Source: Ignavibacteriota bacterium (GTDB taxonomy: Bacteria; Bacteroidota; Ignavibacteria; UBA10030). From it: 64,000 nt of DNA. The first letter of the stretch is position 1; every line of letters begins with the position of its first letter. The stretch spans positions 2,880,895 to 2,944,894 of the forward strand of contig OY969585.1 in the NCBI GenBank assembly GCA_963701295.1, given 5' to 3'. The position numbers and the translations under genes were made by a program. Below the pieces are notes generated by a model. It saw nothing but the letters and a program-made list of their open reading frames with translations, was not told the DNA's origin and ran no database searches. Positions 5,059-51,287 of this stretch are shown piece after piece.

Positions 5059-6690
5059 CTATCCCTCGTGTTTGATCTTAAAATCTTTCATCATCCATTT
5101 TCGTGCAAGCAACAATAAAATTGGACTCATGACTGCAATAAGCCCAAAGATGAGCCACATTTGTCCCGTATCTTTCGGGCCCTCTGCTGGACAGTAACGC
5201 TCCATTATTTGGCCCGAATAGAGTAGTGGAACGAGAAACTTTGTAAGAAACCATGGGAGTTGTGCCACTCCCTGGTATTGTCCTGCTCGATCTGCTGGCG
5301 CAATTTCAGTAGCGTATTGAAGAAAACGTGCCGACCACATAGCTTCACCAATTGTCATGAGAATGATGTATGCAATAAGGGTTAGAGGAGTCGGACCAAG
5401 TGCCAGAATAAATGCTGAGGAACCCATAACGAACGTTCCCCAGACCATCATATTATATACATTTCTTTTGTACGTGAGTGCCGTAATTACCGGTACAAGT
5501 ATGAAGATAAGAATAGGATTTGCGTTGGATGCAATCTCATAGTACTCGCCGATCCAACCGCCAGCGAAAGCCCGTGAAATATATTGAGGCAACACAAGCC
5601 AATTATATGTAAAGAGTGTCTGCACCGGCATAAGTGCGAAGATAAAGAAAAAAAACCTCGGGTCTGCTAAGGGATGTGCAGCAACCCAATGAATGACAGG
5701 GGCTTTGAAGCGATCCGGTAAAAGTGCGATGATAATAGGAACTGCAAGCACAATCGCTTCGAGGATATAACACCATGGATCAGGAACTCGAAAATAGATT
5801 GCAATCAGAATACCGGCAAGAACGATCCACGAAGTGATAGGCACTTTTAATGGGATGGACAGCTTTTCTTTGTCAGTTTTCTGTTGTTCTGTTTCAAGGA
5901 ATTTGCTGTCCGATTTCATCAAAGCATTTTCTGCATTTACACTTGCGATTGTTTTCTCAACTGTTTTTTTTGACAATACAAAGATGGTCACAAGCAGCGA
6001 AACAAGAGTGAGAACAGTGTAAACCCAAAAAGTCCCATTTATGCCGAGGCCTAGAAATTTGTCATCACGCAGCAGGAATGCCATCATTGCCAACGATGAA
6101 CCGGCGTTCATAAGCGCATAAAGCATTGCATATGCCATAGACGCTGTTTTAGGAGTAGTGAATTGTCGAACGGCAGCATAAGCGGCAGGTTGATAGACAC
6201 CATATCCTATAACAACAAAAATAATCCCTACCATTGTGAGAATGTGCAAGGATGACCAGACTCCGTTTGGCACCATCCCGAAGATCGTTGGAGCAGCCGA
6301 CATCACGATCCTTCCTATCAGGAGAAATACGAATGAAAATATTAGAGCGCGGCGGACACCCAACTTGTCCGGTACAAAGCCTAAGAGGACCATAGCGATT
6401 GCGATACCGGCAGTCAGAACCATGACCATTTCGTGAGACCATATATCTGCATGCTCGACACCTTGGAAGACGAAATCTGAAAAATGAATAGCTAAATATG
6501 TAAGAATCCCAAAGTAGGACAGTCCTTCAATCATATAAGCTAGATTCACTCCCCATAACGCACGCGGAGCATGCACCAGATCAATAAACGGTTGAGTGAT
6601 TTCATTCCAGGTCTTTCGCAATACACTTTCAGCCTGTTGGTCTTGTGTCGGATTTATTTTAGTCATACGATCCTTTGTTTTTTTATGCAC
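5059..6690 (-). CDS. MFS transporter, POT/PTR2 (proton-dependent oligopeptide transporter)-like
   Basis: 543 aa with about 14 hydrophobic helices. An N-terminal motif resembling the POT signature (APRALWGVNLAYMIEGLSYFGILTYLAIHF, compare ExxERFSYYG). Confidence 0.55.
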   Translation of the reverse strand: MHKKTKDRMTKINPTQDQQAESVLRKTWNEITQPFIDLVHAPRALWGVNLAYMIEGLSYFGILTYLAIHFSDFVFQGVEHADIWSHEMVMVLTAGIAIAMVLLGFVPDKLGVRRALIFSFVFLLIGRIVMSAAPTIFGMVPNGVWSSLHILTMVGIIFVVIGYGVYQPAAYAAVRQFTTPKTASMAYAMLYALMNAGSSLAMMAFLLRDDKFLGLGINGTFWVYTVLTLVSLLVTIFVLSKKTVEKTIASVNAENALMKSDSKFLETEQQKTDKEKLSIPLKVPITSWIVLAGILIAIYFRVPDPWCYILEAIVLAVPIIIALLPDRFKAPVIHWVAAHPLADPRFFFFIFALMPVQTLFTYNWLVLPQYISRAFAGGWIGEYYEIASNANPILIFILVPVITALTYKRNVYNMMVWGTFVMGSSAFILALGPTPLTLIAYIILMTIGEAMWSARFLQYATEIAPADRAGQYQGVAQLPWFLTKFLVPLLYSGQIMERYCPAEGPKDTGQMWLIFGLIAVMSPILLLLARKWMMKDFKIKHEG

Positions 6691-6712
6691 GATGCAAACA
6701 CCTAAGACATAT

Positions 6713-8923
6713 TTATGGGATACGCTTTAAGAAAACAGCAGCAAGCGGCGGCAGTGATAAATTTAAAGAGAACTGCCTGCCATGATGCGGTATGGATTCA
6801 GCTTTTATTTTTCCAATGTTGCCGACATTGCTCCCTTGATAGTAGGAAGAATCACTATTCAGAATCTCTCGATACTGCCCTTCGTCCGGAACACCGAGAC
6901 GATAATTTATTCGAGGCACCGGTGTAAAGTTGTAGACAACGATAACTTTTTCAAGTCCATCATTCGATTTCCGCATAAGCGCTATAATGCTGTTCGCCTT
7001 GTCCTGGAAATCAATCCATTCAAATCCGGAATAGTGAAAATCCACTTGATGCAGCGCACTTTCTTCACGATAGACATGATTCAAGTCCGTTATCCATTTT
7101 TGGATACCGGCATGCGGTAAGTATTGGGTAAGATGCCAGTCCAGTGATTTGTCGTGATTCCACTCGTCTCGTTGTCCGAATTCTCCACCCATAAAGATTA
7201 ATTTTTTTCCGGGAAATCCAAACATCAATCCAAACAGAAGTCGAAGGTTGGCAAACTTTTGCCAATCATCTCCCGGCATTTTGTGGAGTAAAGAAGATTT
7301 GCCGTGAACCACTTCGTCATGGGAAAGCGGCAATAAAAATCGTTCTGTAAATGCGTATAACAACGCAAATGTAAGATTGTTATGGTGATGAGTTCGATGA
7401 ATTGGGTCTTTAGAAAAGTATTGCAGCATATCGTGCATCCAGCCCATGTTCCACTTCAGACTGAAACCAAGTCCGCCATACGCTAGATCTGTCGTCACAC
7501 CGGGATAAGCAGTTGATTCTTCTGCAATTGTAAGAACACCCGGATAATATTGATGCATGAGCCGTGTCGTATCTTTCAGGAAAGCAATGGCTTCTAAATT
7601 CTCGCGTCCACCATATTCATTGGGAACCCACTGACCTTCTTTTCGTGAATAATCAAGATACAACATCGAAGCGACTGCATCAATCCTAAGACCATCAATG
7701 TGATATTTATCGAGCCAAAAGAGTGCATTGCTGATAAGAAAATTGCGAACTTCTTTCCGCCCGTAATTGAAAATAAACGTACCCCAATCTTGATGTTCGC
7801 CTTTTCGTGGATCCGCGTGTTCATACAAATGCGTTCCATCAAATTCGCCAAGTGCGTATTGATCCTTTGGAAAATGAGCTGGCACCCAATCGAGAATGAC
7901 ACCGATACCATTCTGGTGAAAAGTATCTACAAAGAACATAAAGTCTTGGGGAGCACCGAATCGGCTGGTGGGTGCAAAATAGCCGGTCACTTGATATCCC
8001 CATGATGCGTCGAATGGGTGTTCCATCACAGGCAGAAGTTCAATATGTGTAAAACCTCGCTCTTGCACATATGCCACTATTCTCTCTGCCAATTCTCGAT
8101 AGGTGAGCCAACGGCTGTTTTCTTCAGGAATGCGTGCCCAAGAACCAAGGTGTACTTCATAGATGGAAATCGGTTCACCAAGATGATCGGATTTCGCACG
8201 GCTTTTCATCCACTCTGCATCATTCCATATATATTGTTGAAGAAAGTTCACTTTCGAGGCAGTGCGAGGCCGCAGTTCCATTTCAGTTGAGTATGGATCT
8301 GCCTTATCCAGCACATATCCGGATTTTGTTTTCACCTGAAATTTATAAATTTCACCTTCCGGTAATTCCGGTACAAATATTTCCCATACACCGGAAGCTC
8401 CCAGCACACGCATTGCATGTCTTCGTCGGTCCCAATGGTTAAAGTTCCCGACAACGCTCACGCTTCGCGCATTGGGCGCCCATACTGCAAACTGAACTCC
8501 GCTTACTCCGTTGACTTCGATAGCATGTGCACCTAACTTATCATAGATACGATGATGGTCACCGGCATTAAATAAATACAAGTCAAGGTCGGTCAAAGTG
8601 GGAAGAAATGAATAAGAATCATGATGAATATTCATTGTACCATCATATTTTATTTTCTTGAACTTGTATGGAAATACATCTGAATGATTCTTCAGAACTA
8701 CTTCGAAAAATCCATCTTCCATAATCTTTTCCATCGGATAAGTATTTGCGGTCTTGTCATCTTCTACCACACACATTTCCCTTGCATCAGGTTGGAATGC
8801 CCGCACAACAACGACATGCTTCCCTTCCCTCTTGAGAATGTGTGCACCTAACACAGAAAATGGATCATGATGTTCCGTGTAGATAATGCGATAAATGTCG
8901 TCAATGTGTGCTGTTGATTTCAT
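6713..8923 (-). CDS. glgB: 1,4-alpha-glucan branching enzyme
   Basis: 736 aa with a GH13 catalytic core ([39 protein letters not shown]) and an N-terminal CBM48-like region. Confidence 0.95.
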
Positions 8924-9530
8924 CTAGATTTCTTTTCCGAACAATTGGATCTGAATGTAAATACAATGCATGTCGTTTGATATATCTCTCTATTGATTTT
9001 GATATGAGTTTCGAGACGGTCAATCCTTTCATGAGTCTATTTCTAATTTCCGTAGATGATACCTGAAGAAGCTGACCTTTTATTGGTTGAAATGCAATAT
9101 TTTGATTTTTCAATGATTGATTAAATCCCCTTCGCCTATAGACAGCGAGGGAAGCGAGCTGGAGGATCACTTTGGGTGATTTCCATGATTGAAATTGTTC
9201 AAGATTATCTGCACCAACGATCAGTATAAGAGCGGCATTCGGGAAACGATTCCTGAATGATTTGAGTGTGTCAACAGTGTAGGATATCCCACGGCGTCGT
9301 AATTCTATCGTGGAAACTTTGAAATCTTTCTTTCCATCAAGAGCCAACTTCACCATCGTAAGTCTATGTTTTGCTGTTATGGAATGGTGATGCAATTTGT
9401 GTGGTGGTACGTAAGCAGGTACAAAATAGATGATATCCAGAGAAAGCTGTTTCATCGCCTTTTCTGCAATAGCAATATGCCCCCTGTGAGGCGGGTCGAA
9501 TGTTCCGCCAAAGATACCGATGCGGCTCAT
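8901..9530 (-). CDS. nadD: Nicotinate-nucleotide adenylyltransferase
   Basis: [15 protein letters not shown]...PAYVPPHK hallmark motifs. Confidence 0.9.
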
Positions 9531-10612
9531 GCTACATCCATATATATTTGAAATGTTTTCTTAGCACATTTATCCCATGAAAAACGCTCAACGTTTTTAT
9601 ATCCCTTTTGAATGACAGTCGATCGGTACTCTGTGTCGTTCAGAACGTTCTCTATAGCGCTTGTGAGATCTTCATCAGAATGAGGGTCAAATAAGATGCC
9701 TCCATCGCCCATCATTTCTGGAATTGAACCAGCACGAGCCCCGATTGCAGGAATTCCGGAAGCCATAGCTTCCAACACTGAAAAACCAAAACCTTCGTAC
9801 AACGACGGCAGCACAACCACTGATGCGGCACGGTACGCGAGCGCAAGTTCTCTTTGAGATATCTGCCCGATCTCTACTACATCTTTCGTATTATTATTTT
9901 CTTTGATCAATTTCCAAAGGTTATTCGTTCTTGTAATCGACTCCCCTGAAAAAGCTAATTGGAGATCTGATCGTTGCTTCATATGTGCGAATGCACGAAT
10001 GAGAACTTCAACATTTTTATGAGGTTTGAGACTGCCCGTGTAGAGGATTGTCGGTTTGGTGAGATGATATTTATTCCGAAATTCTTGAATACTCTTTTCT
10101 GAATACTTCGCTGAATAGATGGAGGATACTCCAAGATGAATAACATGGACTTGAGTCTCATTCACATGGAACATATCCAACAATTCTCGTTTCGTAAATT
10201 CAGAATCGACAATAATTGCTGCTGAAGACCGGCACGCATGAGAAATAATTGTCCGAGCATATACTCTTTTAGAGAATGAAAAATATTCCTTACCTCTCAC
10301 GTGTACTATGTCGTGGATAGTTGTCACACAAGGCATCTTGAGGCCAAAGGGAGTCGTATAATGAGGAGCGTGGAATACATCTGCCTTCATTCTGTTTGCA
10401 TCTTTCGCGATTGACCGTAGCTCACTAAGTGAATATTTCCTAGAAGAGTTCATAACCTTCCGGATGGAAGACGGTAAAGCAATTCTGTCTGCATCGTTGG
10501 GTGCAAGAAGGAGCACTAACTCACTACGCGACCCAACATATGGGCTAAGATTTTGAATATACGTTCCAATACCAAAATCAAAATATTTTCGTGCGTCAAG
10601 AACGATACGCAT
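9527..10612 (-). CDS. Glycosyltransferase family 4 (GT-B, glycos_transf_1)
   Basis: C-terminal EGFGFSVLEAMASGIPAI motif. Confidence 0.8.
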   Translation of the reverse strand: MRIVLDARKYFDFGIGTYIQNLSPYVGSRSELVLLLAPNDADRIALPSSIRKVMNSSRKYSLSELRSIAKDANRMKADVFHAPHYTTPFGLKMPCVTTIHDIVHVRGKEYFSFSKRVYARTIISHACRSSAAIIVDSEFTKRELLDMFHVNETQVHVIHLGVSSIYSAKYSEKSIQEFRNKYHLTKPTILYTGSLKPHKNVEVLIRAFAHMKQRSDLQLAFSGESITRTNNLWKLIKENNNTKDVVEIGQISQRELALAYRAASVVVLPSLYEGFGFSVLEAMASGIPAIGARAGSIPEMMGDGGILFDPHSDEDLTSAIENVLNDTEYRSTVIQKGYKNVERFSWDKCAKKTFQIYMDVA

Positions 10613-11471
10613 AGGAAGAAAAGGCCATAATAATCACTGAACGAGCCCGGCGGTGTTCCTCACCCCGAGTACATAGAAATGGATATAAAAATCTTAAAAG
10701 AAGATAGAACCTCAAGGCTGACAATTCAAACCAAGACCTATGTGAGGCATAGAAGAGAAGCTGTGAATGACGATATTCGGTCTTGATCATATTGATGACT
10801 TCGTGAGATATACTCCCTCCACCTATGTGGATCAACGAATACTCTGCGCAATAAAATGACTGAAAACCGGCATTCTGCAAACGGAAACAAAGATCAGCAT
10901 CCTCAAAGTACATGAAGTAACGTTCATCAAATCCGTTTACTTTTTCGAAAGCTGATCGTCGAATCATAACAGCCGCAAATGAAACCCAATCAACTTGTCT
11001 CGGAGACCTGTTTTTCGGAATGTTCTTGAACAGTGCTGTATCTCTCTTTGTGCGAAGTTCATTCAGAAGAGATGGGAATTTTCCATAAGAATGCTGGTAG
11101 GTCCCATCTGAGTTCAGCAGCAATGGGCCAACCGCACCGCAGGAAGGATTCTCTTTCATGAATTGACTAAGAGGCGTGATAATATCTTCTTTGAATAATG
11201 TATCATTATTGATGAAAAACAAATATTCACCGGTTGACGCATTTGCACCAATATTATTTGCCTTGCCAAAACCAAGATTTTGCTGTTGAGCAATAACTTT
11301 AATCTTGGGATATTGCATCTTTATCGCTTCAACACTGCCATCTCTTGAATCATTATCAACAATAATAATTTCGAAAAAACCCTTTTCGTGCATCCTTTTT
11401 ATTGACTCAATACATCGTATGGTATGTTGGCAACCATTAAAGTTTACTATTATAATGGATACCTTAATCAT
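10596..11471 (-). CDS. Glycosyltransferase family 2
   Basis: N-terminal VSIIIVNFNG...IIVDNDSRDGS (GT-A, DxD region). Confidence 0.75.
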   Translation of the reverse strand: MIKVSIIIVNFNGCQHTIRCIESIKRMHEKGFFEIIIVDNDSRDGSVEAIKMQYPKIKVIAQQQNLGFGKANNIGANASTGEYLFFINNDTLFKEDIITPLSQFMKENPSCGAVGPLLLNSDGTYQHSYGKFPSLLNELRTKRDTALFKNIPKNRSPRQVDWVSFAAVMIRRSAFEKVNGFDERYFMYFEDADLCFRLQNAGFQSFYCAEYSLIHIGGGSISHEVINMIKTEYRHSQLLFYASHRSWFELSALRFYLLLRFLYPFLCTRGEEHRRARSVIIMAFSSYAYRS

Positions 11472-11538
11472 TTTGAATCCCTTTTATCAGTAATAGCGGA
11501 TGCATAGTTAAAATCGATATAAAATATGGACATGCACA

Positions 11539-12528
11539 CTATCTCTTCTTTTGCCTAAAATTGTAATCGAAAAAAATCTTTGATTCTGATCTCCTGCGGC
11601 TGTAGAAATAACGAAGACCTATCATGACAGGCACTGGGAAACAGGCAATCAACCATGCAAAGATTTTCCAGTGTAGACTTAGCCTCTTTTCTGAAAAGTA
11701 CTGATTGTAAGATTGAAGGTCATACACACCTTCACTTCGATAAGCAAGAAGGTATTTGAAATTTTTCCAGGGTTCCCTTTGAGTGATACTCTTTTTTGCA
11801 CCATCAGAAATATCCTTGAAAGACCAAACCAGTCCGGGCCACTTAAACATCCAAATGTCAATACTGCGTGTTGTCCACTGAGAATTGCCATAACGGATAC
11901 TAATATAAGGATGGGAAATAATTACAGCCGCTTCCTCCAGTGGTCGCTGAAAAAGAACACCAATATGTATAAATTCAGTGCCATAATAAAGCTTCCGCTC
12001 TCGGCTGAGCCATGTGCTTCGCCGTATCACCACCGCACCAATAAATGAAAGAAGCCACATCGCATCAATGAAAAGATTTTCCATTTCATTTGAGGCATAT
12101 ATCTTATTCTCTTTCATCCTGATTCGCTGACTTTGCAGGACGCCCGATAATTCGCGGTTCTGAACATCAGCGTTCACAATTACCAACCCATAGCCTGCAT
12201 TGATTGCTGATTTCACCGCGGCGACAGCTCCAGGTTTCAGCAGGTCATCATCCGTAAAAAGCCAACAGAAATCTCCACGGGCAAGTTCAACTGATTTATC
12301 GTAATCTTGGTCAACGCCGCCTTTTTGGGGAAAACGGATGTAACGAATTAGTTCGGATTTCTTGATGTAGTTACGCACGACATTCTCAGTATCATCTGTG
12401 GACGCTCCGTCAACCACCACCAATTCAACATCCTCTGTTAACTGAGGAATAATACTATCGAGTGTTTCACCAATGTAATCAGCGCGGTTGTAGGTTGCGA
12501 TGCATATTGAGAGAAGTGGAGCTTTCAT
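11539..12528 (-). CDS. Glycosyltransferase family 2
   Basis: LSICIATYNRADYIGETLDSI...VVDGASTDDT. Confidence 0.75.
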   Translation of the reverse strand: MKAPLLSICIATYNRADYIGETLDSIIPQLTEDVELVVVDGASTDDTENVVRNYIKKSELIRYIRFPQKGGVDQDYDKSVELARGDFCWLFTDDDLLKPGAVAAVKSAINAGYGLVIVNADVQNRELSGVLQSQRIRMKENKIYASNEMENLFIDAMWLLSFIGAVVIRRSTWLSRERKLYYGTEFIHIGVLFQRPLEEAAVIISHPYISIRYGNSQWTTRSIDIWMFKWPGLVWSFKDISDGAKKSITQREPWKNFKYLLAYRSEGVYDLQSYNQYFSEKRLSLHWKIFAWLIACFPVPVMIGLRYFYSRRRSESKIFFDYNFRQKKR

Positions 12529-13496
12529 TCACTTTCCTCAGCTTTAATGAATTCGAGCATGATGACACCTTCGCCCGGAAGATCGTCTGTAGAAGAAAAC
12601 GACTGATATTCTCTTGCAATCATGTAGGGCTCGCGCCAGAAGGGATAAAAAGCACCAAGAAGTCGCTTCATCGAAGTATTCCTGAAAAAAAGGCCACGGC
12701 TCTTTTCACCATAGACTGCGAAATAAACTGGCATACCCGTTACACTAAAAATGCACGACTCTAACCGTTTACGATCATAATAATGCTGCCAGAAGGTATA
12801 GCCATCGTCTCCCTGATTGAGCACACCGTACTGGTTATAGCTGATGTACTGTTCCGTCGATTGAGACAAACAGGGGAGCGTCAGGATGAGTTTTCCGCCA
12901 AGACGAAGTAGTGACCACATCGTTTTAAGGGCAGCTTTATCTTCAGGTATATGCTCCAGTACGGAGAGACAGGTTATGAGATCAAATGAAGCAGAAGGAA
13001 AACTGGTATTCTCAAGGATGTCATTGAAAAACTCGCAGCGAGATTTCAACCCAAGTGCATTTGCCAACTTCTCTGTCTCTCTCAGATCATTTGAATCTGG
13101 ATTAATTAGTTCAGCGGTTGCTCCTGGCGCCGCTTTCAAAAGAAGGAGCGGCATGAGCCGTGGGGAAGAGACATCAAGGTAGCGTCTGAAGGAAAAACCC
13201 TCCAACCTTTTCCAGACTTCGTGAAACTCAAAATAACGAGTTGAATCCATAGGTAAAAAAAGATAATTATAGCAGGTTTTCAGTGATATGCGTCTAGTAA
13301 TGAACAGAATCGCAGCGGTTGCTGCACAACGCAGATGAAAACCAATTCCTGGTGCTCCTGCAATTTGAGCCATTACAAGATAGAGGGGCGAGAAAAATAT
13401 TCCCTTCAGTCGTACCCACAGTTTGTACAAAAAGCTGTACGACATCGGAAGCGGGACTTCAATAAATTGTTTTCTAACATGAGGGTCGTTGTTCAT
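12525..13496 (-). CDS. Class I SAM-dependent methyltransferase with an N-terminal membrane segment
   Basis: DLITCLSVLEHIPEDKAALKTMWSLLRLGGKLILTLP (type-11-like methyltransferase fold). 4-bp overlap with the upstream GT2 gene. Confidence 0.55.
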   Translation of the reverse strand: MNNDPHVRKQFIEVPLPMSYSFLYKLWVRLKGIFFSPLYLVMAQIAGAPGIGFHLRCAATAAILFITRRISLKTCYNYLFLPMDSTRYFEFHEVWKRLEGFSFRRYLDVSSPRLMPLLLLKAAPGATAELINPDSNDLRETEKLANALGLKSRCEFFNDILENTSFPSASFDLITCLSVLEHIPEDKAALKTMWSLLRLGGKLILTLPCLSQSTEQYISYNQYGVLNQGDDGYTFWQHYYDRKRLESCIFSVTGMPVYFAVYGEKSRGLFFRNTSMKRLLGAFYPFWREPYMIAREYQSFSSTDDLPGEGVIMLEFIKAEESE

Positions 13497-13584
13497 TTTA
13501 TTTATGATGAACTAAATCTTTCTATTTAGAGATTATTAGGTTGCTTCGAAGCAATTCGCAATATAATTCCCGATAATTATTTTA

Positions 13585-14413
13585 GGTAATTAGGTAAGAA
13601 TGTAACCATAGAATAATTGTAAGTATATTATTTTATGGCAAGTTCCAGTAAAATCAGTTACCATGACAACTTTTTGAGTGGAAAGAAGTGTGTGTATTGT
13701 GGATCGTTCAACGTCTGTCGAACGAAACGCGGCTACGTAAAATGCAACAAGTGTCAAAGACAAAAAGGAAGTCATCTTCTTCGGCGAGAGTTGAAAATCA
13801 TTCTTGGTTTTTATCAACAGCAACCGGCGTATCGATTGGCAAATGATCTTGGAATAAATTATAAAACTGTTACCAGAGTCTATCAGCGCATTCGAGAAGC
13901 GATTTATCATGTGAGCGAACTTGAAGCTGGCAAGCTCAAAGGAGAAATAGAATTGGACGAAGCGTATTTTGGTGGTCGTCGCAAAGGCAAACGAGGACGC
14001 GGTGCAGGCGGAAAAAGTATCGTTTTTGGGCTTCTGGAGCGCAATGGACGGGTCTATACTAAGGTTGTTGATTCTGTCTCGGCCAATGAATTGATGGATC
14101 ATATTCGACAACATACCAAGAAAGGATCGGTCTACTTCACGGACACCTTTCGTAGTTATCGCTCCTTGAAACGCTTTGGAAAACATCATACCATTAGTCA
14201 TGGAAAGAAATTTCCGAAAACAAAGAATCATATTAATGGTATTGAAGGATTTTGGTCTTTTGCTAAACATGTCTTATATAATTATCGCGGTGTTTCAAAA
14301 TATCATTTTCCTATGTATCTTAAAGAAGTTGAATATCGTTTTAACCATCGCGATGACAATTTGTTGAAACTCTTTACTCTAATCTATTTCGGTTACGTTT
14401 CTACCTAATTACC
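13585..14413 (+). mobile_element. IS1595-family insertion sequence, copy 1
   Basis: 23-bp terminal inverted repeats GGTAATTAGGTAAGAATGTAACC (13585-13607) and the reverse complement of GGTAATTAGGTAGAAACGTAACC (14391-14413). A perfect 8-bp direct repeat TTATTTTA flanks the element at 13577-13584 and 14414-14421. Confidence 0.8.
13635..14408 (+). CDS. IS1595-family (ISXO2-like) DDE transposase
   Basis: 257 aa with an N-terminal Cys-rich zinc finger (CVYCGS...CNKCQ) and a DDE-type core. Near-identical to the CDS at 18264-19037. Confidence 0.85.
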   Translation: MASSSKISYHDNFLSGKKCVYCGSFNVCRTKRGYVKCNKCQRQKGSHLLRRELKIILGFYQQQPAYRLANDLGINYKTVTRVYQRIREAIYHVSELEAGKLKGEIELDEAYFGGRRKGKRGRGAGGKSIVFGLLERNGRVYTKVVDSVSANELMDHIRQHTKKGSVYFTDTFRSYRSLKRFGKHHTISHGKKFPKTKNHINGIEGFWSFAKHVLYNYRGVSKYHFPMYLKEVEYRFNHRDDNLLKLFTLIYFGYVST

Positions 14414-14436
14414 TTATTTTAATACCGGGTGCCACA

Positions 14437-15981
14437 TCAAATTGATTTTATTTTCAAAAAAAATAATGCATGCAACCATGTTCTCGTTACAGGAGTAATA
14501 ATTGCCGTTATTCCAAGTGTAAGAACTGAAATAATAATTAAATAGTGTACCATTATATATTGGGAAATAGGCTCTTTCACCAACATTCGACCAAAACCTG
14601 CTACCAATGTGGATGCCACAAGTGCTAGGCAGACATCTTGCCGATACCACCGCCACATTTCTTTTCGTAATATTTTTCGGTGCATTATGGGAATTTCAAA
14701 AAATACGTATCCGATATTCAAAAGCACCCATGCACTTGATGCACCTACAGCACCATATTGCATCGCTAAAAATATAATCAGTGGAACCATAATAATCACA
14801 GCAATAATATTTTTGATAAAAGATAATTTTGTCCACCCAAACGCCAGCTGTAATGCATACGGTGGATTCATAAGACCATTCAATGCAGTTCCACAAATCA
14901 TAATACTAACAATGAGATGAGTCTTTTCGGCTGTTATCGGATTCTGTGTCCACAGAAAAATAACTTCATAGGAAAACAAAGCAATAACAATTGCGATTGG
15001 CAAGGTCAATACTGCAATGAATTGGCAGCTTTTATGATAAAGACGTTTTAATTCATCCAAATCATTAATTGAAACCAGTTGAGTAAATCTTGGGTAAATA
15101 CTAAAAAAAACTGGAGAAAAAAGACGCCCAAGACTCATTGCTATCAAACTTGCAAGCGAATAATAACCAAACATTTCCAACGAGAGTAACTTGCTTAATA
15201 TAACCTTATCTATCTGCGTAAGAACAACTGCAAGAATGGAAATTCCACTCATTCCTGCTGTAAACTTCCAAATTCCTTGAAGAAGTATTTTTTGAAAAAC
15301 AGGTTTACTTTCAGTACGAGGAAGATTTTTCCACAAAGTAACTGTAAATATAAAAGAATTAACGATACTAATTCCCAATTGCCATAATAAAAATGCCTGT
15401 ATAGTCGGAGAAACCAACCATAAAACGAAGACAGCGCCAACACCGCGCAATGTGCCCATGCATATATTGATACCATTAAGAAGAACCTGTTTTTGCAATC
15501 CCATCAGTCCTCCAGAATAAAATCCGTTAGGCATCTGAAAAATCGCAATGAGACCCATAATCACAAATGCTTGTTCAATTATTTTGGGAGATAATGCTCC
15601 TGCTTTTACCCAATAATGCGCTAAGAATGGTGAAATTGATATAATCACAATTCCTACAAAAACAGCAATACCCCAATATATCGTTTCCAGAGTACGAACA
15701 AGGTTGCGTCTTTCTTGGTCCTTCCCCGGCAAAACGGATAGCCTCGCCATTTCCCTGGTTAGGGTACTTCCTAAACCTACGTCTAAAAGTCCAAAAATAG
15801 CTTGAAGTGTCGCAAATATACCAACTAAACCATACGACTCCATTCCTATGTACTTAATGTATAATGGAATAAAGAGCAAACCCATAAGAGCCTGCCAAAA
15901 GGTTCCGGCAAAATTGGCAGTAATATTTTTTTTTAAAGGATTTGAAGAAATTTGTGAAGATGTAGATTTTTCATTTATCAT
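14437..15981 (-). CDS. Wzx-type oligosaccharide flippase / polysaccharide biosynthesis protein (MOP superfamily)
   Basis: 514 aa with about 12-14 transmembrane helices. The N-terminus follows the family pattern N..W.......L.....YLG.E.YG... Confidence 0.6.
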   Translation of the reverse strand: MINEKSTSSQISSNPLKKNITANFAGTFWQALMGLLFIPLYIKYIGMESYGLVGIFATLQAIFGLLDVGLGSTLTREMARLSVLPGKDQERRNLVRTLETIYWGIAVFVGIVIISISPFLAHYWVKAGALSPKIIEQAFVIMGLIAIFQMPNGFYSGGLMGLQKQVLLNGINICMGTLRGVGAVFVLWLVSPTIQAFLLWQLGISIVNSFIFTVTLWKNLPRTESKPVFQKILLQGIWKFTAGMSGISILAVVLTQIDKVILSKLLSLEMFGYYSLASLIAMSLGRLFSPVFFSIYPRFTQLVSINDLDELKRLYHKSCQFIAVLTLPIAIVIALFSYEVIFLWTQNPITAEKTHLIVSIMICGTALNGLMNPPYALQLAFGWTKLSFIKNIIAVIIMVPLIIFLAMQYGAVGASSAWVLLNIGYVFFEIPIMHRKILRKEMWRWYRQDVCLALVASTLVAGFGRMLVKEPISQYIMVHYLIIISVLTLGITAIITPVTRTWLHALFFLKIKSI

Positions 15982-16082
15982 TCAAAACCCTGTACGAATA
16001 ATAATTTTTCCACATACTTATCGATCGCATATTTTTAAAATAATTCCTTTCCTGAATTGTTGAATACCAATACATATGGCCT

Positions 16083-16976
16083 CTAAAAGTTACTTTCACC
16101 CATCATGACATCTGCAAGCTGGTGAAAACTGACTTTTTGTTTCCATCCAAGGCTTTTAATCAAAGATGGATTACTAACTAATATGTTAAATTCAGGAACG
16201 TAATTATCTTTTAATTGGATATGCTCTTCCCATTTTTTGTTGATTTTACTGAAACAATATTCTATCCACTCCTTCATACTGTGCGCCTCTCCAGAACCAA
16301 TAACTGCCTCGTGAATATTATTTTGATTAATTAAAATCCAAATTGCTTCTATTACATCCAATGCATAATTAAATTCCTTTTGAACATTAATATTTCCCAA
16401 TTCTATTTTTTCGTTACTCCCCGACTTAATTCGCTTTATGGTTTGAACGATCTTCTGGTTAATATGTTTTTCTGATCTAATAGGACTATCATGATGAAAT
16501 AAATATCCGACATATGTTTGCAAACCAAACGTGTTCCGATAATATCGAGAAGAATAAACTGAGTGTATTCGTGATACAGAATATGGACTAGAACCTTCAA
16601 ATGAAGTTTGTTCATCGATTGGGTTTCCATCATTCTTAAATTGCAATGCACTTCCAGAAATAAATATTTTTGAGTCTGGACAGTGAAGTCTTGCAGATTC
16701 AAGAATATTTAGAGTACCGGTACAAATTGTTTGATGATTTTCAAATAATGCGGAGTGCTTTGTAGTAGAAATTGAGGCAAAATTGAAAATATATCTGGGC
16801 TGTTTTATTTTTATTTGTTCTTCAACAAAAGCATAATCACGGACATCGCCAATGATACTTCCTTCGGATCTCGATATGCAGTCTACCTTCTTTCCATTAT
16901 TTTCTAGTAAATACTTTAAATATCTGCCATCCTGACCATTTGAACCAAAGATAATTGCATCAATACGCTCCTTCAT
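16083..16976 (-). CDS. Short Gmd/Rmd-like extended SDR (GDP-4-keto-6-deoxy-D-mannose reductase-like)
   Basis: 297 aa. Aligns along its length with the Gmd at 51288-52328 (GSNGQDGRYL versus [10 protein letters not shown]; LFHHDSPIRSEKHINQKIV versus [18 protein letters not shown]) but is shorter. The catalytic Y-x-x-x-K reads YSVSR. Confidence 0.5.
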   Translation of the reverse strand: MKERIDAIIFGSNGQDGRYLKYLLENNGKKVDCISRSEGSIIGDVRDYAFVEEQIKIKQPRYIFNFASISTTKHSALFENHQTICTGTLNILESARLHCPDSKIFISGSALQFKNDGNPIDEQTSFEGSSPYSVSRIHSVYSSRYYRNTFGLQTYVGYLFHHDSPIRSEKHINQKIVQTIKRIKSGSNEKIELGNINVQKEFNYALDVIEAIWILINQNNIHEAVIGSGEAHSMKEWIEYCFSKINKKWEEHIQLKDNYVPEFNILVSNPSLIKSLGWKQKVSFHQLADVMMGESNF

Positions 16977-16988
16977 TGTAATTCCCTT

Positions 16989-18218
16989 TTATACAATTTC
17001 AATTTCCGGCAATGGGAAAATAAATTTTCCTCCTTGTGCGACATATTCTTTTTCGCGATGTAAAATACTATCCTTAAAATGCCAAGGTAAAACTAAAAAA
17101 TAATCTGGATTCATTGCTTTCGCTTCAACTTCAGATATGATCGGTATATTTGTGCCAGGAGTAAAAGAACCATATTTTTCCTTGTTTACTTCAGCAATAA
17201 ATGGAATGTGCTTACTCGTAAATCCACAAAATTGCAATAATACATTTCCCTTTGTACTAGCTCCATAACCAATAATTTTCCTTCCATCCGCAACTAATGC
17301 TTGAATTAAATTTATTAAGTTTTTCCGGTGTCGGAATACTCTTTCTTCAAAATCTCTATACGGTTTTGGATTATCAAGTCCCATATCATCTTCTTGTTTT
17401 AGCAACCAATCAATGATCGGTGTATTAGGCATATAAGACGCATTCTTTTTACAAGACGTAACCGCAAAACTTCCACCATTAATTGAGCTCATTTGAACAT
17501 CCATAACCTTCATTCCACAAATATCCAAAATACTTTTAACAACTTTTAAAGAGTAAAATTCTAAATGTTCATGACAAATTGTATCATAACTATTAGTTCG
17601 AAGCATACTTGGCATATAGCTTTGTTCAAAATGCCAAATACCATCATCTGTTAAACATTGTTCAATATCTCTTACAAAATCTATCGGTGATTCTAAATCA
17701 TAGAACATCGCAATGGATGTGATAATTTTAGCTTTGTCATTGGGGATATTGTCCTTAAATGTCTTTGCAGTAAAAAAATCAGGAATTAAAGTGATATCAT
17801 TTCCATAGTATTTTTTGAACTTCAATCCGGTAGGGTCTATTCCAACTTTTTTATGCTTTCCCGAATATGCCTTTAATGATGTTGCATCATTACTACCAAT
17901 ATCTATTACTAAGTCAGTATCGTTTAGTTTGACAAGACGTTCCAGGGTTTTAATTTTTTGTTCAAGATGTCTTACCATTGATGAATTTAATCCAGATCGG
18001 TATCCATAATTATCTCCGTACATCTCTTGAAGACTGTAAGATTGTTTCATTTGTAATAATCCACTGTCAGGACACCAAACTAGGTCCAAAGGACCTTTTG
18101 TGATCTTTTCATCAATCCTTTTTGGAAAAACGCCTGTTAGATATTGATTCCCAAGAGATAATACTGGTATAAGATTTGTACTCTGACTAATTCGACATTT
18201 GGTTATTTCTGAATACAT
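16989..18218 (-). CDS. NDP-hexose C-methyltransferase family (TylCIII-like; Methyltransf_13/14 domains)
   Basis: 409 aa. SAM motif DIGSNDATSL. C-terminal IIGYGASTKGNVLLQFCGF typical of the C-methyltransferase C-terminal domain. N-terminal degenerate zinc-ribbon region. Confidence 0.6.
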   Translation of the reverse strand: MYSEITKCRISQSTNLIPVLSLGNQYLTGVFPKRIDEKITKGPLDLVWCPDSGLLQMKQSYSLQEMYGDNYGYRSGLNSSMVRHLEQKIKTLERLVKLNDTDLVIDIGSNDATSLKAYSGKHKKVGIDPTGLKFKKYYGNDITLIPDFFTAKTFKDNIPNDKAKIITSIAMFYDLESPIDFVRDIEQCLTDDGIWHFEQSYMPSMLRTNSYDTICHEHLEFYSLKVVKSILDICGMKVMDVQMSSINGGSFAVTSCKKNASYMPNTPIIDWLLKQEDDMGLDNPKPYRDFEERVFRHRKNLINLIQALVADGRKIIGYGASTKGNVLLQFCGFTSKHIPFIAEVNKEKYGSFTPGTNIPIISEVEAKAMNPDYFLVLPWHFKDSILHREKEYVAQGGKFIFPLPEIEIV

Positions 18219-18258
18219 ACTTAATAGTCCTATATGATAGGTTCATATTATAGTTTTA

Positions 18259-19087
18259 GGTAATTAGGTAGAAACGTAACCGAAATAGATTAGAGTAAAG
18301 AGTTTCAACAAATTGTCATCGCGATGGTTAAAACGATATTCAACTTCTTTAAGATACATAGGAAAATGATATTTTGAAACACCGCGATAATTATATAAGA
18401 CATGTTTAGCAAAAGACCAAAATCCTTCAATACCATTAATATGATTCTTTGTTTTCGGAAATTTCTTTCCATGACTAATGGTATGATGTTTTCCAAAGCG
18501 TTTCAAGGAGCGATAACTACGAAAGGTGTCCGTGAAGTAGACCGATCCTTTCTTGGTATGTTGTCGAATATGATCCATCAATTCATTGGCCGAGACAGAA
18601 TCAACAATCTTAGTATAGACCCGTCCATTGCGCTCCAGAAGCCCAAAAACGATACTTTTTCCGCCTGCACCGCGTCCTCGTTTGCCTTTGCGACGACCAC
18701 CAAAATACGCTTCGTCCAATTCTATTTCTCCTTTGAGCTTGCCAGCTTCAAGTTCGCTCACATGATAAATCGCTTCTCGAATGCGCTGATAGACTCTGGT
18801 AACAGTTTTATAATTTATTCCAAGATCATTTGCCAATCGATACGCCGGTTGCTGTTGATAAAAACCAAGAATGATTTTCAACTCTCGCCGAAGAAGATGA
18901 CTTCCTTTTTGTCTTTGACACTTGTTGCATTTTACGTAGCCGCGTTTCGTTCGACAGACGTTGAACGATCCACAATACACACACTTCTTTCCACTCAAAA
19001 AGTTGTCATGGTAACTGATTTTACTGGAACTTGCCATAAAATAATATACTTACAATTATTCTATGGTTACATTCTTACCTAATTACC
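18259..19087 (-). mobile_element. IS1595-family insertion sequence, copy 2 (inverted relative to copy 1)
   Basis: Same terminal inverted repeats (18259-18281 and 19065-19087). The 8-bp flanks are TAGTTTTA and AAATTTTA, a 6/8 match, so the target-site duplication is imperfect. Confidence 0.8.
18264..19037 (-). CDS. IS1595-family DDE transposase
   Basis: 257 aa, identical to copy 1 except for one V/I substitution. Confidence 0.85.
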   Translation of the reverse strand: MASSSKISYHDNFLSGKKCVYCGSFNVCRTKRGYVKCNKCQRQKGSHLLRRELKIILGFYQQQPAYRLANDLGINYKTVTRVYQRIREAIYHVSELEAGKLKGEIELDEAYFGGRRKGKRGRGAGGKSIVFGLLERNGRVYTKIVDSVSANELMDHIRQHTKKGSVYFTDTFRSYRSLKRFGKHHTISHGKKFPKTKNHINGIEGFWSFAKHVLYNYRGVSKYHFPMYLKEVEYRFNHRDDNLLKLFTLIYFGYVST

Positions 19088-19245
19088 AAATTTTATTATA
19101 TTATTATTTTTAATAAATAGAAATCTATTATATACACTGATTGAAAAATAAATCCTATTCTGTTTAAGGTTATTAGATAGAGCGTAAATTTATCTTCTTG
19201 TTTAATAAAATAGACCACCGTAATTGTGAGGATGACCGCTGCAAT

Positions 19246-19556
19246 TCACGCCCACAATTTCATGTAAAATTTATTTCTTAAGAGTTCATAGCGATTTTCT
19301 GGATCCTTAACAAAATTGCGCCCAACAATGCTATCCAAACCCAATGTCGTAAGCACACCAAAAAGACCTGCAAATGCAATAACATGATTTCGAAGCCGTG
19401 TTGCTCCGGCCCAAGATAACTTGCAACCCATATTCCAACTACAAGTCCTACTCCCATTCTTAAGACTTTATCAAAAGACAACCAGCCAATATTATGGACA
19501 ATATTTTGCAACTTATCCGATTGCATGTATCTCTCTTCTGAGATCATCTTGCTCAA
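19246..19556 (-). pseudogene. Remnant of a Wzx-type flippase: N-terminal ~100 codons, frameshifted and truncated
   Basis: Two overlapping frames read ...NIGWLSFDKVLRMGVGLVVGIWVASYLGPEQHGF and ...VIAFAGLFGVLTTLGLDSIVGRNFVKDPEN. Joined, they match the conserved flippase N-terminus seen in the other two flippases. The remnant ends about 158 bp before IS copy 2. Confidence 0.5.
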
Positions 19557-20419
19557 TTGTCTTTCAATTCTTCCATACTTGAGGTACTCTTGAGGATTGG
19601 GGTTACTTTCACTTGCCGAATCCGACGTGCGCTCTTCGAGATTATTGCAAAGATGAAATTCTCTGCTCGGATCTCTTCATTGAATTCTGGCAGTCGTCCT
19701 GTGATTGTCTGTAAATATCCGGCTACTGTTTCATACTCCGGTGCCTCCGGCAGCTTCAAACGAAACTGCTGATTAAAGTCTGCAATGGATAACGCAGCAT
19801 CTACAATAACCGACCCATCTCCAGCTTGTTCTACTGATTTGCGCACTTCGTCATATTCATCAAAGATGTCTCCGACAATTTCTTCGATGATATCCTCCAT
19901 GGTAACGATGCCTTCTGTTCCGCCATACTCGTCTACTACAGTACCGATATGAACTTTGTATTGCTGGAATTCATGCAAGAGCTGGCTAATCTTTTTTGAT
20001 TCTGGAACGAAGTGCGCAGGCCGGATAATATCCTGGAGAATAATAAGCGAGCGATGCTCTAAAAGACTGAGCAAATCTTTGCTGTAAATAACACCAATGA
20101 TATGGTCAATAGTACCTTTGTAGACAGGTAATCGTGAGTACCCTTCTTCAATCACTTTTCGTACTAAAACATCCCGAGACATAGAAATGTCAAGAGCAAC
20201 AATATCAGGACGCGGCACCATGATTTCCTTTGCTGTTATATCGGAAAACTGTAAAATACTCTTTATGAGTTCAAGTTCCGTTTTATCAATTGCCCCGCTG
20301 AGAGAACCGGCATCAATAACCTGCTTGAGCTCGTCTTCCGATAGTTTCGCTCTCAGCAATCCTCCTTTGATCAGTGCATCTCTCAATATGGTTTTCATTG
20401 ATCTCATATCTTCATCCAC
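19553..20419 (-). CDS. corC: CBS-pair plus CorC/HlyC-domain protein (CorC/YbeX-like; no DUF21 membrane domain)
   Basis: 288 aa. A CBS pair (ITAKEIMVPRPDIV...) followed by the C-terminal transporter-associated CorC_HlyC domain. Confidence 0.75.
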   Translation of the reverse strand: MDEDMRSMKTILRDALIKGGLLRAKLSEDELKQVIDAGSLSGAIDKTELELIKSILQFSDITAKEIMVPRPDIVALDISMSRDVLVRKVIEEGYSRLPVYKGTIDHIIGVIYSKDLLSLLEHRSLIILQDIIRPAHFVPESKKISQLLHEFQQYKVHIGTVVDEYGGTEGIVTMEDIIEEIVGDIFDEYDEVRKSVEQAGDGSVIVDAALSIADFNQQFRLKLPEAPEYETVAGYLQTITGRLPEFNEEIRAENFIFAIISKSARRIRQVKVTPILKSTSSMEELKDN

Positions 20420-40605: not shown

Positions 40606-40640
40606 AACTGTACAACTAAAATTTGCTATCATCTCTGAAT

Positions 40641-43348: not shown

Positions 43349-43360
43349 ACCATTCTCTTA

Positions 43361-44281: not shown

Positions 44282-44282
44282 G

Positions 44283-48078: not shown

Positions 48079-48101
48079 GCGAATGGCGGCAATTTCACGC
48101 G

Positions 48102-48896: not shown

Positions 48897-48912
48897 AATC
48901 ACCAACCGCTCA

Positions 48913-50786: not shown

Positions 50787-50810
50787 GAATGTATAGTTCT
50801 TTGTGCGTAG

Positions 50811-51243: not shown

Positions 51244-51287
51244 TTTCTATCATTCTCTTATTTCCAACAGAACTAACCAACTCTGAA

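Follow-up and report, generated by a model that had tools for sequence, protein, structure and literature searches.

An inverted pair of IS1595-family elements around three genes of a native glycan array in an Ignavibacteriota-like bacterium: two probably separate insertions

The glycan array and its IS copies

The region described here lies in a 64-kb window (the whole stretch of DNA that was analysed) and is a native polysaccharide array of the O-antigen/EPS type, located in a hypervariable slot of an Ignavibacteriota-like bacterium. Seven co-directional genes form the array in the order C-methyltransferase (C-MT), SDR, Wzx, methyltransferase, GT2, GT2 and GT4, and the first three of them are bracketed by two copies of an insertion sequence (IS). 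On one side of the slot, the conserved backbone comprises genes for a MiaB-like protein, a hypothetical protein, TruA and CorC; on the other side, it comprises a CTP-transferase-like gene and GlgB. The features are as follows:

8901-9530, minus strand: cytidylyltransferase-like (PF01467) protein, conserved backbone at the downstream edge of the slot, followed by GlgB
9527-10612, minus strand: GT4 of the glycan array
10596-11471, minus strand: GT2 of the glycan array
11539-12528, minus strand: GT2 of the glycan array
12525-13496, minus strand: SAM methyltransferase (MT323) of the glycan array, downstream of IS copy 1
13577-13584, no strand: left 8-bp target-site duplication (TSD) of IS copy 1, TTATTTTA
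13585-14413, plus strand: IS copy 1, 829 bp, IS1595 family (transposase ORF 13635-14408, 257 aa), terminal inverted repeats GGTAATTAGGTAAGAATGTAACC / GGTAATTAGGTAGAAACGTAACC
14414-14421, no strand: right 8-bp TSD of IS copy 1, TTATTTTA
14437-15981, minus strand: MOP/Wzx-type flippase, 514 aa (Pfam Polysacc_synt and Polysacc_synt_3; weak NCBIfam MOP flippase match)
16083-16976, minus strand: short GMD-like extended SDR, 297 aa (GDP_Man_Dehyd match, 164 bits)
16989-18218, minus strand: TylCIII/TcaB9-type NDP-hexose C-MT, 409 aa (Methyltransf_13, Methyltransf_23, Methyltransf_14)
18259-19087, minus strand: IS copy 2, 829 bp (transposase ORF 18264-19037, V153I relative to copy 1)
19088-19552, minus strand: CorC/C-MT spacer with the frameshifted 5′ stub of an older MOP-flippase gene, common to the IS-free relatives
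19553-20419, minus strand: CorC/HlyC-type CBS-domain protein, conserved backbone at the upstream edge of the slot
51288-52328: gmd (514 bits)

A first-pass annotation had described the enclosed genes as a self-contained toolkit, which does not fit with a trio that represents the 5′ end of a seven-gene array and holds the only flippase of this array. Its description of the IS copies was accurate: both belong to the IS1595 family, are inverted relative to each other (inverted repeat of 842 nt at 99%) and encode transposases differing in one amino acid, due to a single exchange in 829 nt (14064 G / 18608 A). With 99.9% identity and complete transposase ORFs, both copies are intact, and the minimal divergence indicates recent insertions. 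The transposase matches the Pfam domain DDE_Tnp_IS1595 (PF12762) with 113.4 bits (cutoff 27) and the NCBIfam model for IS1595 family transposases (NF033547) with 164.9 bits (cutoff 75); alongside the ISXO2-like/IS1595 domain, it has a CxxC…CxxC zinc-ribbon motif at the N-terminus. The 23-bp terminal inverted repeats reported before are present, but imperfect, with 20 of 23 matching positions, the first 12 being perfect.

Short terminal repeats and a length of 829 bp, within the range of ~0.7-1.1 kb, fit with the IS1595 family, as do the single DDE transposase, the 8-bp A/T-rich duplication, the preference for intergenic sites and the multicopy lifestyle. ISApl4 (IS1016 group of the IS1595 family) is similarly small with 712 bp. 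Unlike the named IS1595 elements, the IS described here has imperfect repeats, and its closest protein cluster is just 95% identical; this cluster has 106 members on ~1-kb contigs, as is typical of a multicopy repeat. Neither a third copy nor a fragment was found within the 64-kb window, and a non-exhaustive search of the metagenome collection retrieved the exact IS end just twice, in unrelated contexts. Related IS1595-family elements generate 8-bp A/T-rich direct repeats and insert mostly into intergenic DNA (PMC12561309).

The enclosed genes and a predicted sugar pathway

Profile matches support the three gene identities given by the first-pass annotation, a flippase, a Gmd/Rmd-like short SDR and a TylCIII-type C-MT. 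The 514-aa flippase matches PF01943 (52.6 bits) and PF13440 (46.6 bits) and is encoded within a glycan cluster, in agreement with a Wzx/MOP assignment. Its NCBIfam equivalog scores are under the cutoff, as usually seen with divergent Wzx sequences, and the ortholog in the IS-free relative L085 has equal length and 97.5% amino acid identity.

The SDR shares with GMD and Rmd the extended-SDR fold and the GxxGxxG motif, and its length of ~300 aa is similar to that of Rmd. Nevertheless, it is not a GMD: its score lies far under the gmd equivalog cutoff (TIGR01472, 139 vs 415 bits), the GMD-specific insertions are missing and the catalytic Thr/Ser–Glu…Tyr-xxx-Lys set is incomplete. Throughout the subfamily the triad reads Ser-Tyr-Arg (YSVSR), with Arg in place of the Lys in YxxxK, and Leu or Met occupies the position of the dehydratase Glu. 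Among solved structures, GMDs match best (120-131 bits; 1n7g 131) and Rmd scores lower (2pk3 68.7 bits, 6x3b 32.4 bits). Since the sequence is nearer to GMD than to characterised Rmd, the term Rmd-like describes a guessed function rather than membership. The loss of the dehydratase Glu, the retention of GxxGxxG and Ser/Tyr and the conserved adjacency to the C-MT point to a predicted NDP-4-ketohexose reductase, not a dehydratase.

For the C-MT, all three domains of the known architecture were recovered, i) the N-terminal zinc-binding domain (PF08421, 53.9 bits), ii) the class I SAM-MT domain (PF13489, 32 bits) and iii) the C-terminal C-methyltransferase domain (PF08484, 182.8 bits). The protein aligns end to end with sugar 3-C-methyltransferases (4rv9 168 bits; TcaB9 and the 5t64 chain ~135-138 bits), with residues 5-408 covered in the alignment to 4rv9, 3ndi and 5t64. 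It thereby shares with TylCIII, TcaB9, KijD1 and MtmC the three-domain architecture, the full-length alignment and a Glu-His pair (DTICHEH vs DQIYDEH in TcaB9 and DTIYHEH in 4rv9), which 115 of 120 homologs retain and which corresponds to the catalytic Glu224/His225 in the sugar pocket of TcaB9. The positions that align with TcaB9 His181 and Tyr222 are Asp and Cys. In contrast to the CxxC…CxxC of the solved 3-C-methyltransferases, the zinc motif of this subfamily reads CRIS…CPDS, so that two of the four Cys are lost, with Ser in place of the second Cys in both pairs, as in 106-111 of 120 close homologs; the partner SDR likewise departs with YxxxR. The C-MT subfamily is very conserved, and its 80-97% identity across Bacteroidota and Ignavibacteriota makes a lateral spread of the gene likely.

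Based on these assignments, a pathway to a 3-C-methylated 6-deoxyhexose from an externally supplied NDP-4-keto-6-deoxyhexose is plausible. The C-MT would methylate C-3 of an NDP-4-keto-6-deoxyhexose made elsewhere, the leading candidate being GDP-4-keto-6-deoxymannose from the gmd at 51288-52328, which proved to be genuine as had been assumed. The GMD-like SDR would then reduce the 4-keto group to yield an NDP-6-deoxy-3-C-methylhexose for the repeat unit flipped by Wzx. Pairing of the methyltransferase with a 4-keto-acting SDR, an activity predicted in our case, is shared with known 3-C-methyltransferase systems. The C-MT and SDR genes are also conserved neighbours in Mucilaginibacter, while in a Methanolobus cluster they are separated by one gene, and ManC and a full-length GMD-type gene are located upstream. 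A comparable GDP route has been proposed for virenose in Coxiella burnetii, with a TylCIII-type enzyme acting on GDP-4-keto-6-deoxymannose supplied by Gmd (PMC3539893).

IS-free relatives and the two insertion sites

Close relatives without the IS are represented by 11 metagenome contigs from peat (90-97% DNA identity), assigned to uncultured Ignavibacteriota or “Bacteroidota”. Here, the locus reads CorC–C-MT–SDR–Wzx–MT–GT2–GT2–GT4–CTP-transferase–GlgB with both IS sites empty, and gene order, orientation and lengths equal those of the window (409/297/514/323/329/291/361/209/736 aa). In the closest relatives (L001, L085-L092) the trio segment occupies the exact position and orientation without IS flanks, and in L085-L088 the MT, GT2, GT2 and GT4 genes directly follow wzx with lengths as in the window. 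Also the more distant L084, L002 and L003 have CorC–C-MT–(SDR)–Wzx and no IS, and C-MT–SDR–Wzx recurs as a module in L003, L084, L085 and the P0008 contig. The comparison of relatives proposed with the first-pass annotation has thus recovered the trio in the same orientation and without the IS. The older flippase relic is part of this shared background, as a 120-aa ORF matching PF01943 occupies the position equivalent to the stub in L084, and tblastn with this ORF and a 92-aa ORF of the window matched the CorC/C-MT spacer in L001 and L084-L092.

In 29 species-level relatives (L004-L032), the backbone is conserved and the glycan content between is variable, with no IS1595 transposase in any of the 29 slots. 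The trio is missing from the slot in many of them, so that on a longer timescale it is a variable module of serotype-like character that is exchanged laterally. In cultured bacteria, O-antigen and capsule loci are low-GC, hypervariable and located between conserved genes, and IS elements in spacers and relics of gene sets are common there; the intergenic IS and the wzx 5′ stub fit into this picture. Unlike the enterobacterial galF/gnd flanks, the slot is bordered by CorC/TruA and the CTP-transferase-like gene/GlgB, and the host is an uncultured Ignavibacteriota-type bacterium from peat. Besides, MT323, Wzx, SDR and C-MT are about threefold less diverged from the L085 lineage at third codon positions than the surrounding genes, so recombination has exchanged a part of the array at a more recent time than the backbone. 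This younger tract ends on the right near IS copy 2, and on the other side it runs about 1 kb past IS copy 1 into MT323; hence, the IS pair is not its boundary.

The AT-richness between the copies, as noticed earlier, was borne out by the GC content of 33.8% for 14414-18258, compared to 41.9% and 41.8% in the flanks and 40.3% in the window, and by a GC3 of 0.23-0.29 in the trio genes vs 0.33-0.43 in neighbouring genes. The GC content is equally low in the glycan genes elsewhere in the window (43-46 kb, 58-64 kb), as is typical for this type of gene in the genome. The same is found for C-MT/SDR in IS-free relatives (33.2 vs 41.5% in L001, 32.8 vs 41.9% in L002), showing that the low GC of the trio is inherited. 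The first-pass annotation had reasoned that a segment without IS flanks in relatives and with host-typical composition would argue against its proposal; the former was found, while the composition is low in GC.

With regard to the insertion sites, megablast against the IS-free relatives shows collinearity on either side of each IS, with the IS and about 8 nt missing there. Copy 1 is located between the wzx and MT323 genes, 16 nt past the wzx stop codon, and is oriented antisense to the glycan operon. The duplication reported for this copy is indeed perfect (8/8), of the 8-bp (7-9 bp) A/T-rich type of the IS1595 family, and the chance of such a match in the AT-rich DNA here is ~1e-4 by a hand estimate. 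The site is empty in L085-L091: L085 reads CCCGATAA-TTATTTTG-ATACTGGG, with the single matching octamer TTATTTTG, where the window reads TTATTTTA-IS-TTATTTTA. From its private TSD, confirmed by the empty site of L085, it follows that copy 1 inserted alone, at a time when wzx was already directly followed by the methyltransferase gene.

Copy 2 points in the direction of the operon, with 40 nt between it and the start codon of the downstream C-MT gene, and is absent at this site in L001, L084 and L085-L092; an empty site is also seen in L002 and L003. Its flanks, TAGTTTTA at 18251-18258 and AAATTTTA at 19088-19095, are identical at 6 of 8 positions, and the window has 16 extra nt at this site in comparison to every IS-free relative. 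Since there is no clean TSD and additional nucleotides are present, a small rearrangement may have occurred at the insertion of copy 2. A 91%-related IS copy in L096 has flanking octamers that, like those of copy 2, differ at 1-2 positions. The imperfect flanks of copy 2 had not been mentioned in the first-pass annotation. Similarly, the outer flanks of the IS pair, TTATTTTA and AAATTTTA, agree at 6 of 8 positions and are no TSD.

Origin of the bracketed arrangement

Taken together, it is very likely that a native glycan array was struck twice, recently and independently, by a multicopy 829-bp IS1595-family element. Copy 1 would have entered the AT-rich octamer TTATTTTA by ordinary cut-and-duplicate transposition, and copy 2 would have inserted into the indel-prone AT-rich spacer upstream of the C-MT gene. 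The IS elements would neither have delivered nor inverted the trio, and the bracketing would be a by-product of the IS preference for AT-rich intergenic DNA.

The first-pass annotation had instead proposed a composite-transposon-style serotype-conversion module, in which the surface polysaccharide was converted by the joint arrival of the IS pair and the trio on a single mobile unit. Near-identical inverted copies around a low-GC segment, the absence of the trio from the slot in many related species and the high conservation of the C-MT across phyla would all suit such a delivery, and two IS copies around a passenger of a few kb are also found in the compound transposons Tn10 and Tn5 and in the IS1595-family pseudo-compound Tn7560, with the inverted orientation resembling classical compound transposons. 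However, the IS-free relatives hold the trio in equal position and orientation with sequence continuous to both IS ends, so here, unlike in Tn10/Tn5 and Tn7560, the passenger genes are ancestral and continuous with the operon; relatives lacking the IS keep the genes (L001, L084, L085-L092, L002, L003). Likewise unlike these transposons, no outer TSD surrounds the unit: the inner flank of copy 1 repeats its own outer flank, and the outer flanks mismatch. The younger recombination tract exceeds the IS pair by about 1 kb, and among the other C-MT and SDR contexts examined in a non-exhaustive search, neither a flanking IS nor an IS–trio–IS unit was found. A composite delivery is thus extremely improbable and, by the IS-free relatives and the TSD of copy 1, effectively refuted. 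The inverted orientation and near-identity of the copies, together with the missing proper TSD of copy 2, could also be explained if one copy had arisen from the other by intramolecular replicative transposition, inverting the DNA between them. This would leave no direct TSD, octamers shared crosswise as reverse complements and a trio inverted relative to IS-free relatives, but the TSD of copy 1 is perfect, crosswise comparisons fail and the trio is not inverted. Trio orientation and copy 1 TSD refute this origin as well, and we regard it as hardly credible.

A somewhat less remote, though still unlikely, reading accepts insertions in situ and regards the resulting structure as now functional for mobilisation or flipping, i.e. 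as a nascent composite transposon or an invertible segment. In the latter case, homologous recombination between the inverted copies would invert the 3.8 kb and switch the C-methyl-sugar branch and flippase on or off, similar to phase variation. The copies are intact, inverted and nearly identical with complete transposase ORFs, C-MT–SDR–Wzx is a recurring module, and active compound-type transposons can arise from IS1595-family pairs (PMC12561309). Yet, there is no sign of movement or inversion: the opposite orientation of the trio was seen neither in the window nor in any relative examined, its ancestral orientation indicates that no inversion has occurred, and the undisturbed TSD of copy 1 speaks against a fixed one. 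Furthermore, a flipped trio would have no obvious promoter logic, and as any IS pair in a genome has such potential, the arrangement is not special in this respect. Inversion or later mobilisation may nevertheless occur.

Two separate insertions into the native array would probably also affect its expression. By polarity, copy 1 probably disconnects the four transferase genes downstream of it from transcription of the operon, and copy 2 probably cuts the trio off from its native upstream region, so that the trio would rely on read-through from the transposase gene for its expression. Under this most likely reading, the arrangement is a product of normal IS activity rather than a mobile cassette for serotype switching.

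Two IS1595-family insertions in a glycan gene array

The first-pass annotation had described two IS1595-family elements in opposite orientation with transposases one amino acid apart. This is borne out by an inverted repeat of 842 nt with 99% complementarity (arms at 13573-14414 and 18258-19099 in the window), by profile matches of the 257-aa transposase (113 bits to Pfam DDE_Tnp_IS1595 and 164.9 bits to the NCBIfam IS1595-family model, which has a cutoff of 75) and by the sole difference between the copies, 14064 G in copy 1 and 18608 A in copy 2, which exchanges Val153 for Ile. The element is a new, unnamed member of this known family. The 23-bp terminal inverted repeats ascribed to it are indeed found at the IS ends, but they are imperfect, with 20 of 23 positions identical. 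Copy 1 has the perfect 8-bp target-site duplication (TSD) claimed for it, with TTATTTTA at both 13577-13584 and 14414-14421, while only six of eight positions are identical between the octamers flanking copy 2, TAGTTTTA (18251-18258) and AAATTTTA (19088-19095).

Features of the locus and of a second polysaccharide locus
9527-10612, minus strand: GT4
10596-11471, minus strand: GT2
11539-12528, minus strand: GT2
12525-13496, minus strand: SAM methyltransferase (MT323)
13585-14413, transposase on plus strand: IS1595-family copy 1, 829 bp
Between the copies, minus strand: flippase of the Polysacc_synt/MOP type, 514 aa (Wzx)
Between the copies, minus strand: SDR of the GDP_Man_Dehyd type, 297 aa
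Between the copies, minus strand: C-methyltransferase with Methyltransf_13, Methyltransf_23 and Methyltransf_14 architecture, 409 aa (C-MT)
18259-19087, transposase on minus strand: IS1595-family copy 2, 829 bp
40641-57270: second, larger polysaccharide locus with several GT2, glf (UDP-galactopyranose mutase), an SGNH-type protein and another wzx, and further with gmd, three more epimerase/dehydratase-family SDR genes, UDP-glucose dehydrogenase and a Bac_transf initiating sugar transferase
51288-52328: true gmd, 514 bits

Profile matches and, for the C-MT, solved structures show that the three genes between the copies (the trio) had been annotated essentially correctly as flippase, SDR and sugar C-methyltransferase, and the gmd mentioned elsewhere in the window is a true one. 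The trio is, however, not the self-contained toolkit it was taken for, as glycan genes of the same strand continue beyond copy 1, which is the sole separator between the trio and MT323. Spacing among MT323, the two GT2 genes and GT4 is tight or overlapping, and a cytidylyltransferase-like gene and then glgB follow after GT4. Upstream of the trio lie CorC, TruA, a hypothetical gene and a MiaB-like gene. The array from 9.5 to 18.2 kb contains no dehydratase or sugar nucleotidyltransferase gene. Besides these loci, the window encodes a predicted 1789-aa protein (35332-40701, minus strand) with Peptidase_C25 (gingipain-type), ILEI, CARDB and T9SS C-terminal sorting domains, which adjoins a Wzi-like protein (32869-34560) and a GT2 gene (34585-35322).

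With one difference in 829 nt between the copies, both insertions must be recent. The nearest transposase cluster is 95% identical and comprises 106 sequences, located on ~1-3-kb contigs, and the ~2,700 transposase homologs lie mostly on ~1-kb contigs, as is typical where assemblies break at multicopy repeats. The 64-kb window holds no third copy or fragment, and a metagenome scan with the exact 35-nt IS end returned only two loci, both with 91-95% related copies in unrelated contexts, and no IS-trio junction. Every IS flank seen, including those of related metagenome copies, is an A/T-rich octamer. This is in line with ISApl4, a characterised IS1595-family element that generates 8-bp direct repeats, prefers A/T-rich targets and is found mostly at intergenic sites (PMC12561309). 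Given such a preference, two insertions in AT-rich spacers of one AT-rich operon are unremarkable.

IS-free relatives and the origin of the pair

The contigs carrying the closest C-MTs (L001, L002, L003, L084) have a window-like neighbourhood and are IS-free. The closest SDR match, P0241 (96% identical), is found on 11 contigs, which come from several samples within a single JGI study. Four of these contigs (L085-L088) contain the full array, consisting of CorC, a 71-aa ORF, C-MT (409 aa), SDR (297), Wzx (514), MT (323), GT2 (329), GT2 (291), GT4 (361), CTP-transferase (209) and GlgB (736), with the gene lengths of the window and with both IS absent. A CorC scan of species-representative genomes places the lineage among uncultured Ignavibacteriota (partly labelled “Bacteroidota”) of peat and fen sites, represented in SPRUCE and fen MAG sets. 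The segment is not confined to IS flanks but sits IS-free in the same place and orientation, as megablast against L085 demonstrates.

Collinear megablast segments between the window and L085
Window 6550-13583: L085 19597-12558
Window 14414-18250: L085 12564-8727
Window 19093-20409: L085 8729-7415

The copy 1 site of L085 has the sequence CCCGATAA-TTATTTTG-ATACTGGG, with a single copy of the octamer found on both sides of the IS in the window. L084, whose homology stops within the wzx 3' end, gives no information on this empty site, which is supplied by L085-L091. At the copy 2 site, the IS is absent in all five IS-free relatives compared.

These data decide between the possible origins of the pair. 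For a composite transposon that delivered its cargo, one expects a TSD at the outer flanks, inner flanks unrelated to the outer ones, and unoccupied sites in which the outer flanks are joined. Instead, the outer flanks differ (TTATTTTA versus AAATTTTA), the inner octamer of copy 1 exactly repeats its own outer octamer, and the cargo is in place in relatives without any IS. The TSD of copy 1 together with the IS-free relatives shows that the genes were present before the IS, and the composite-transposon-style serotype-conversion module suggested in the first pass is not supported. Intramolecular replicative inversion would also produce an inverted pair, but it is rejected by the copy 1 TSD and the ancestral orientation of the trio. 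Low GC was considered as a mark of IS-mediated import. The 3,845 bp between the copies are indeed AT-richer, as had been judged by eye, with 33.8% GC compared to 41.9% and 41.8% in the flanks and 40.3% in the whole window (GC3 of the trio genes 0.23-0.29). The same composition is found for C-MT/SDR in IS-free relatives (L001 33.2% vs 41.5% in the flank, L002 32.8% vs 41.9%), so that the low GC of the trio is inherited. Glycosyltransferase, acetyltransferase and methyltransferase genes at ~58-64 kb (58.8-63.7 kb) are as AT-rich (30-37% GC), which makes low GC a general trait of the glycan genes of this genome and no sign of import. Taken together, the pair reflects the ordinary activity of an insertion sequence, and the glycan locus that it entered is native and hypervariable.

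The copy 2 flanks deviate from a simple insertion, as every IS-free relative lacks both octamers, and the window is longer at this point by 16 nt in addition to the IS. Since the two IS copies differ only once in 829 bp, it is unlikely that two substitutions arose within 8 bp after insertion. The duplication may have been imperfect, or the site may have undergone a small local rearrangement; the spacer is indel-prone in all lineages, and a 91%-related IS at another locus (L096, 9793-10621) has flanks with seven of eight positions identical.

We regard it as very improbable that the two in situ insertions have just packaged the glycan module as a working compound transposon or as a unit that can be inverted. 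If true, this would be a snapshot of the first step towards an IS-mobilisable surface-sugar branch in uncultured Ignavibacteriota, with a laterally successful module of C-methyltransferase, YxxxR reductase and flippase. Under the favoured reading of ordinary insertions, the copies are potential substrates for future rearrangement, and the significance beyond correct annotation is small: a low-GC segment between inverted IS copies does not suffice to call a composite transposon.

A hypervariable slot between CorC and the CTP-transferase

A tblastn table of 32 related loci reveals a conserved backbone with MiaB-like, hypothetical, TruA and CorC genes on one side and (GT4)-CTP-transferase-GlgB on the other. 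The interval from CorC to the CTP-transferase is hypervariable, being empty in three loci (L017, L022, L026) and filled with up to ~8 kb of differing glycan genes in others; an IS1595 transposase was found in the slot in none of the 32. Among ~29 species-level Ignavibacteriota relatives (L004-L032), the glycosyltransferase sets after CorC differ. The trio thus represents one gene set among several alternatives, and its presence is serotype-like variation independent of the IS.

The spacer between CorC and C-MT (19088-19552, minus strand) retains a frameshifted 5' stub of an older MOP-flippase gene, left over from an earlier exchange of gene sets in the slot. A 92-aa ORF at 19278-19556 was considered as a gene cut by copy 2 and rejected, as this frameshifted stub is also present in IS-free relatives and is consequently older than the IS; its equivalent in L084 is a 120-aa ORF that still matches PF01943.

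Identity at third codon positions between the window and L085 splits the genes into two groups.

Third-position identity to L085
MT323, Wzx, SDR, C-MT: 0.94-0.95
All other genes compared: 0.79-0.88

Overall, the block from MT323 to C-MT (window 12525-18250, L085 8727-13617) is ~97% identical, compared to 89-94% for the surrounding genes, with edges at ~12.5 kb and ~18.25 kb. This points to a ~5.7-kb tract exchanged more recently by homologous recombination. On the right it ends near copy 2, where the array itself has its natural edge. The IS pair was considered as the limit of the higher identity and rejected, because the four-gene tract extends across the insertion site of copy 1.

Operon expression and a putative C-methyl sugar route

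In this strain, both insertions probably perturb expression of the surface-polysaccharide operon. Copy 1, in antisense orientation, lies 16 nt past the wzx stop and 81 nt ahead of the next start codon, and probably has a polar effect on the four transferase genes that follow. Copy 2 is located 40 nt upstream of the C-MT ATG, separating it from a block farther upstream that is conserved in the alignment of L085, L084 and L002. Its transposase gene is directed into the operon, and read-through could drive the trio. Scans for sigma-70 promoters (28 hits vs 25.2 expected; the host may use other promoter types) and terminators (six terminator-like hits vs 4.2 expected) were at chance level and are uninformative on polarity.

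Residues 5-408 of the C-MT align with solved sugar 3-C-methyltransferases (4rv9, 168 bits; TcaB9 and a 5t64 chain, ~135-138 bits). It keeps the Glu-His pair of TcaB9 (DQIYDEH) and 4rv9 (DTIYHEH) but has CRIS…CPDS in place of the CxxC…CxxC of the solved enzymes, features present in 106-115 of 120 homologs; two of the four zinc cysteines are lost in this subfamily. The SDR, initially called Gmd/Rmd-like, is most similar to GMDs (131 bits), the likeness to Rmd being weaker (69 bits), and scores far under the gmd threshold. In its subfamily, the catalytic Glu of GMD is replaced by Leu or Met and the lysine of YxxxK by Arg, which makes a dehydratase role unlikely; our best guess from these residues is a 4-ketoreductase. 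Sources annotate the subfamily as GDP-mannose 4,6-dehydratase despite YxxxR and the missing dehydratase Glu.

C-MT and SDR (window 16083-18218) are adjacent in the trio-bearing Ignavibacteriota relatives, except L002 without SDR, and in Mucilaginibacter (L093, 9001-11130). The archaeon Methanolobus psychrophilus R15 (L095, 5924-9876) has them with one gene in between, in a cluster that opens with ManC, an NTP-transferase and a GMD-type gene of full length. In all three groups the pair belongs to polysaccharide loci. The C-MT search gave >8000 matches, and named sources among the best 120 are Bacteroidota or Ignavibacteriales MAGs; the 79-97% identity over these 120 suggests frequent lateral transfer. 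GDP-4-keto-6-deoxymannose, which gmd at 51288-52328 could supply, is the leading candidate substrate of the C-MT in view of the cluster context, the descent of the SDR from GMDs and the GDP route to virenose published in silico (PMC3539893). The C-methylated deoxysugar pathway sketched in the first pass is plausible on these grounds. The more useful by-product of this analysis is the very conserved, widespread and uncharacterised pair of C-MT and YxxxR-SDR itself, which marks a probable route to C-methyl-branched deoxysugars in environmental Bacteroidota, Ignavibacteriota and some methanogens.
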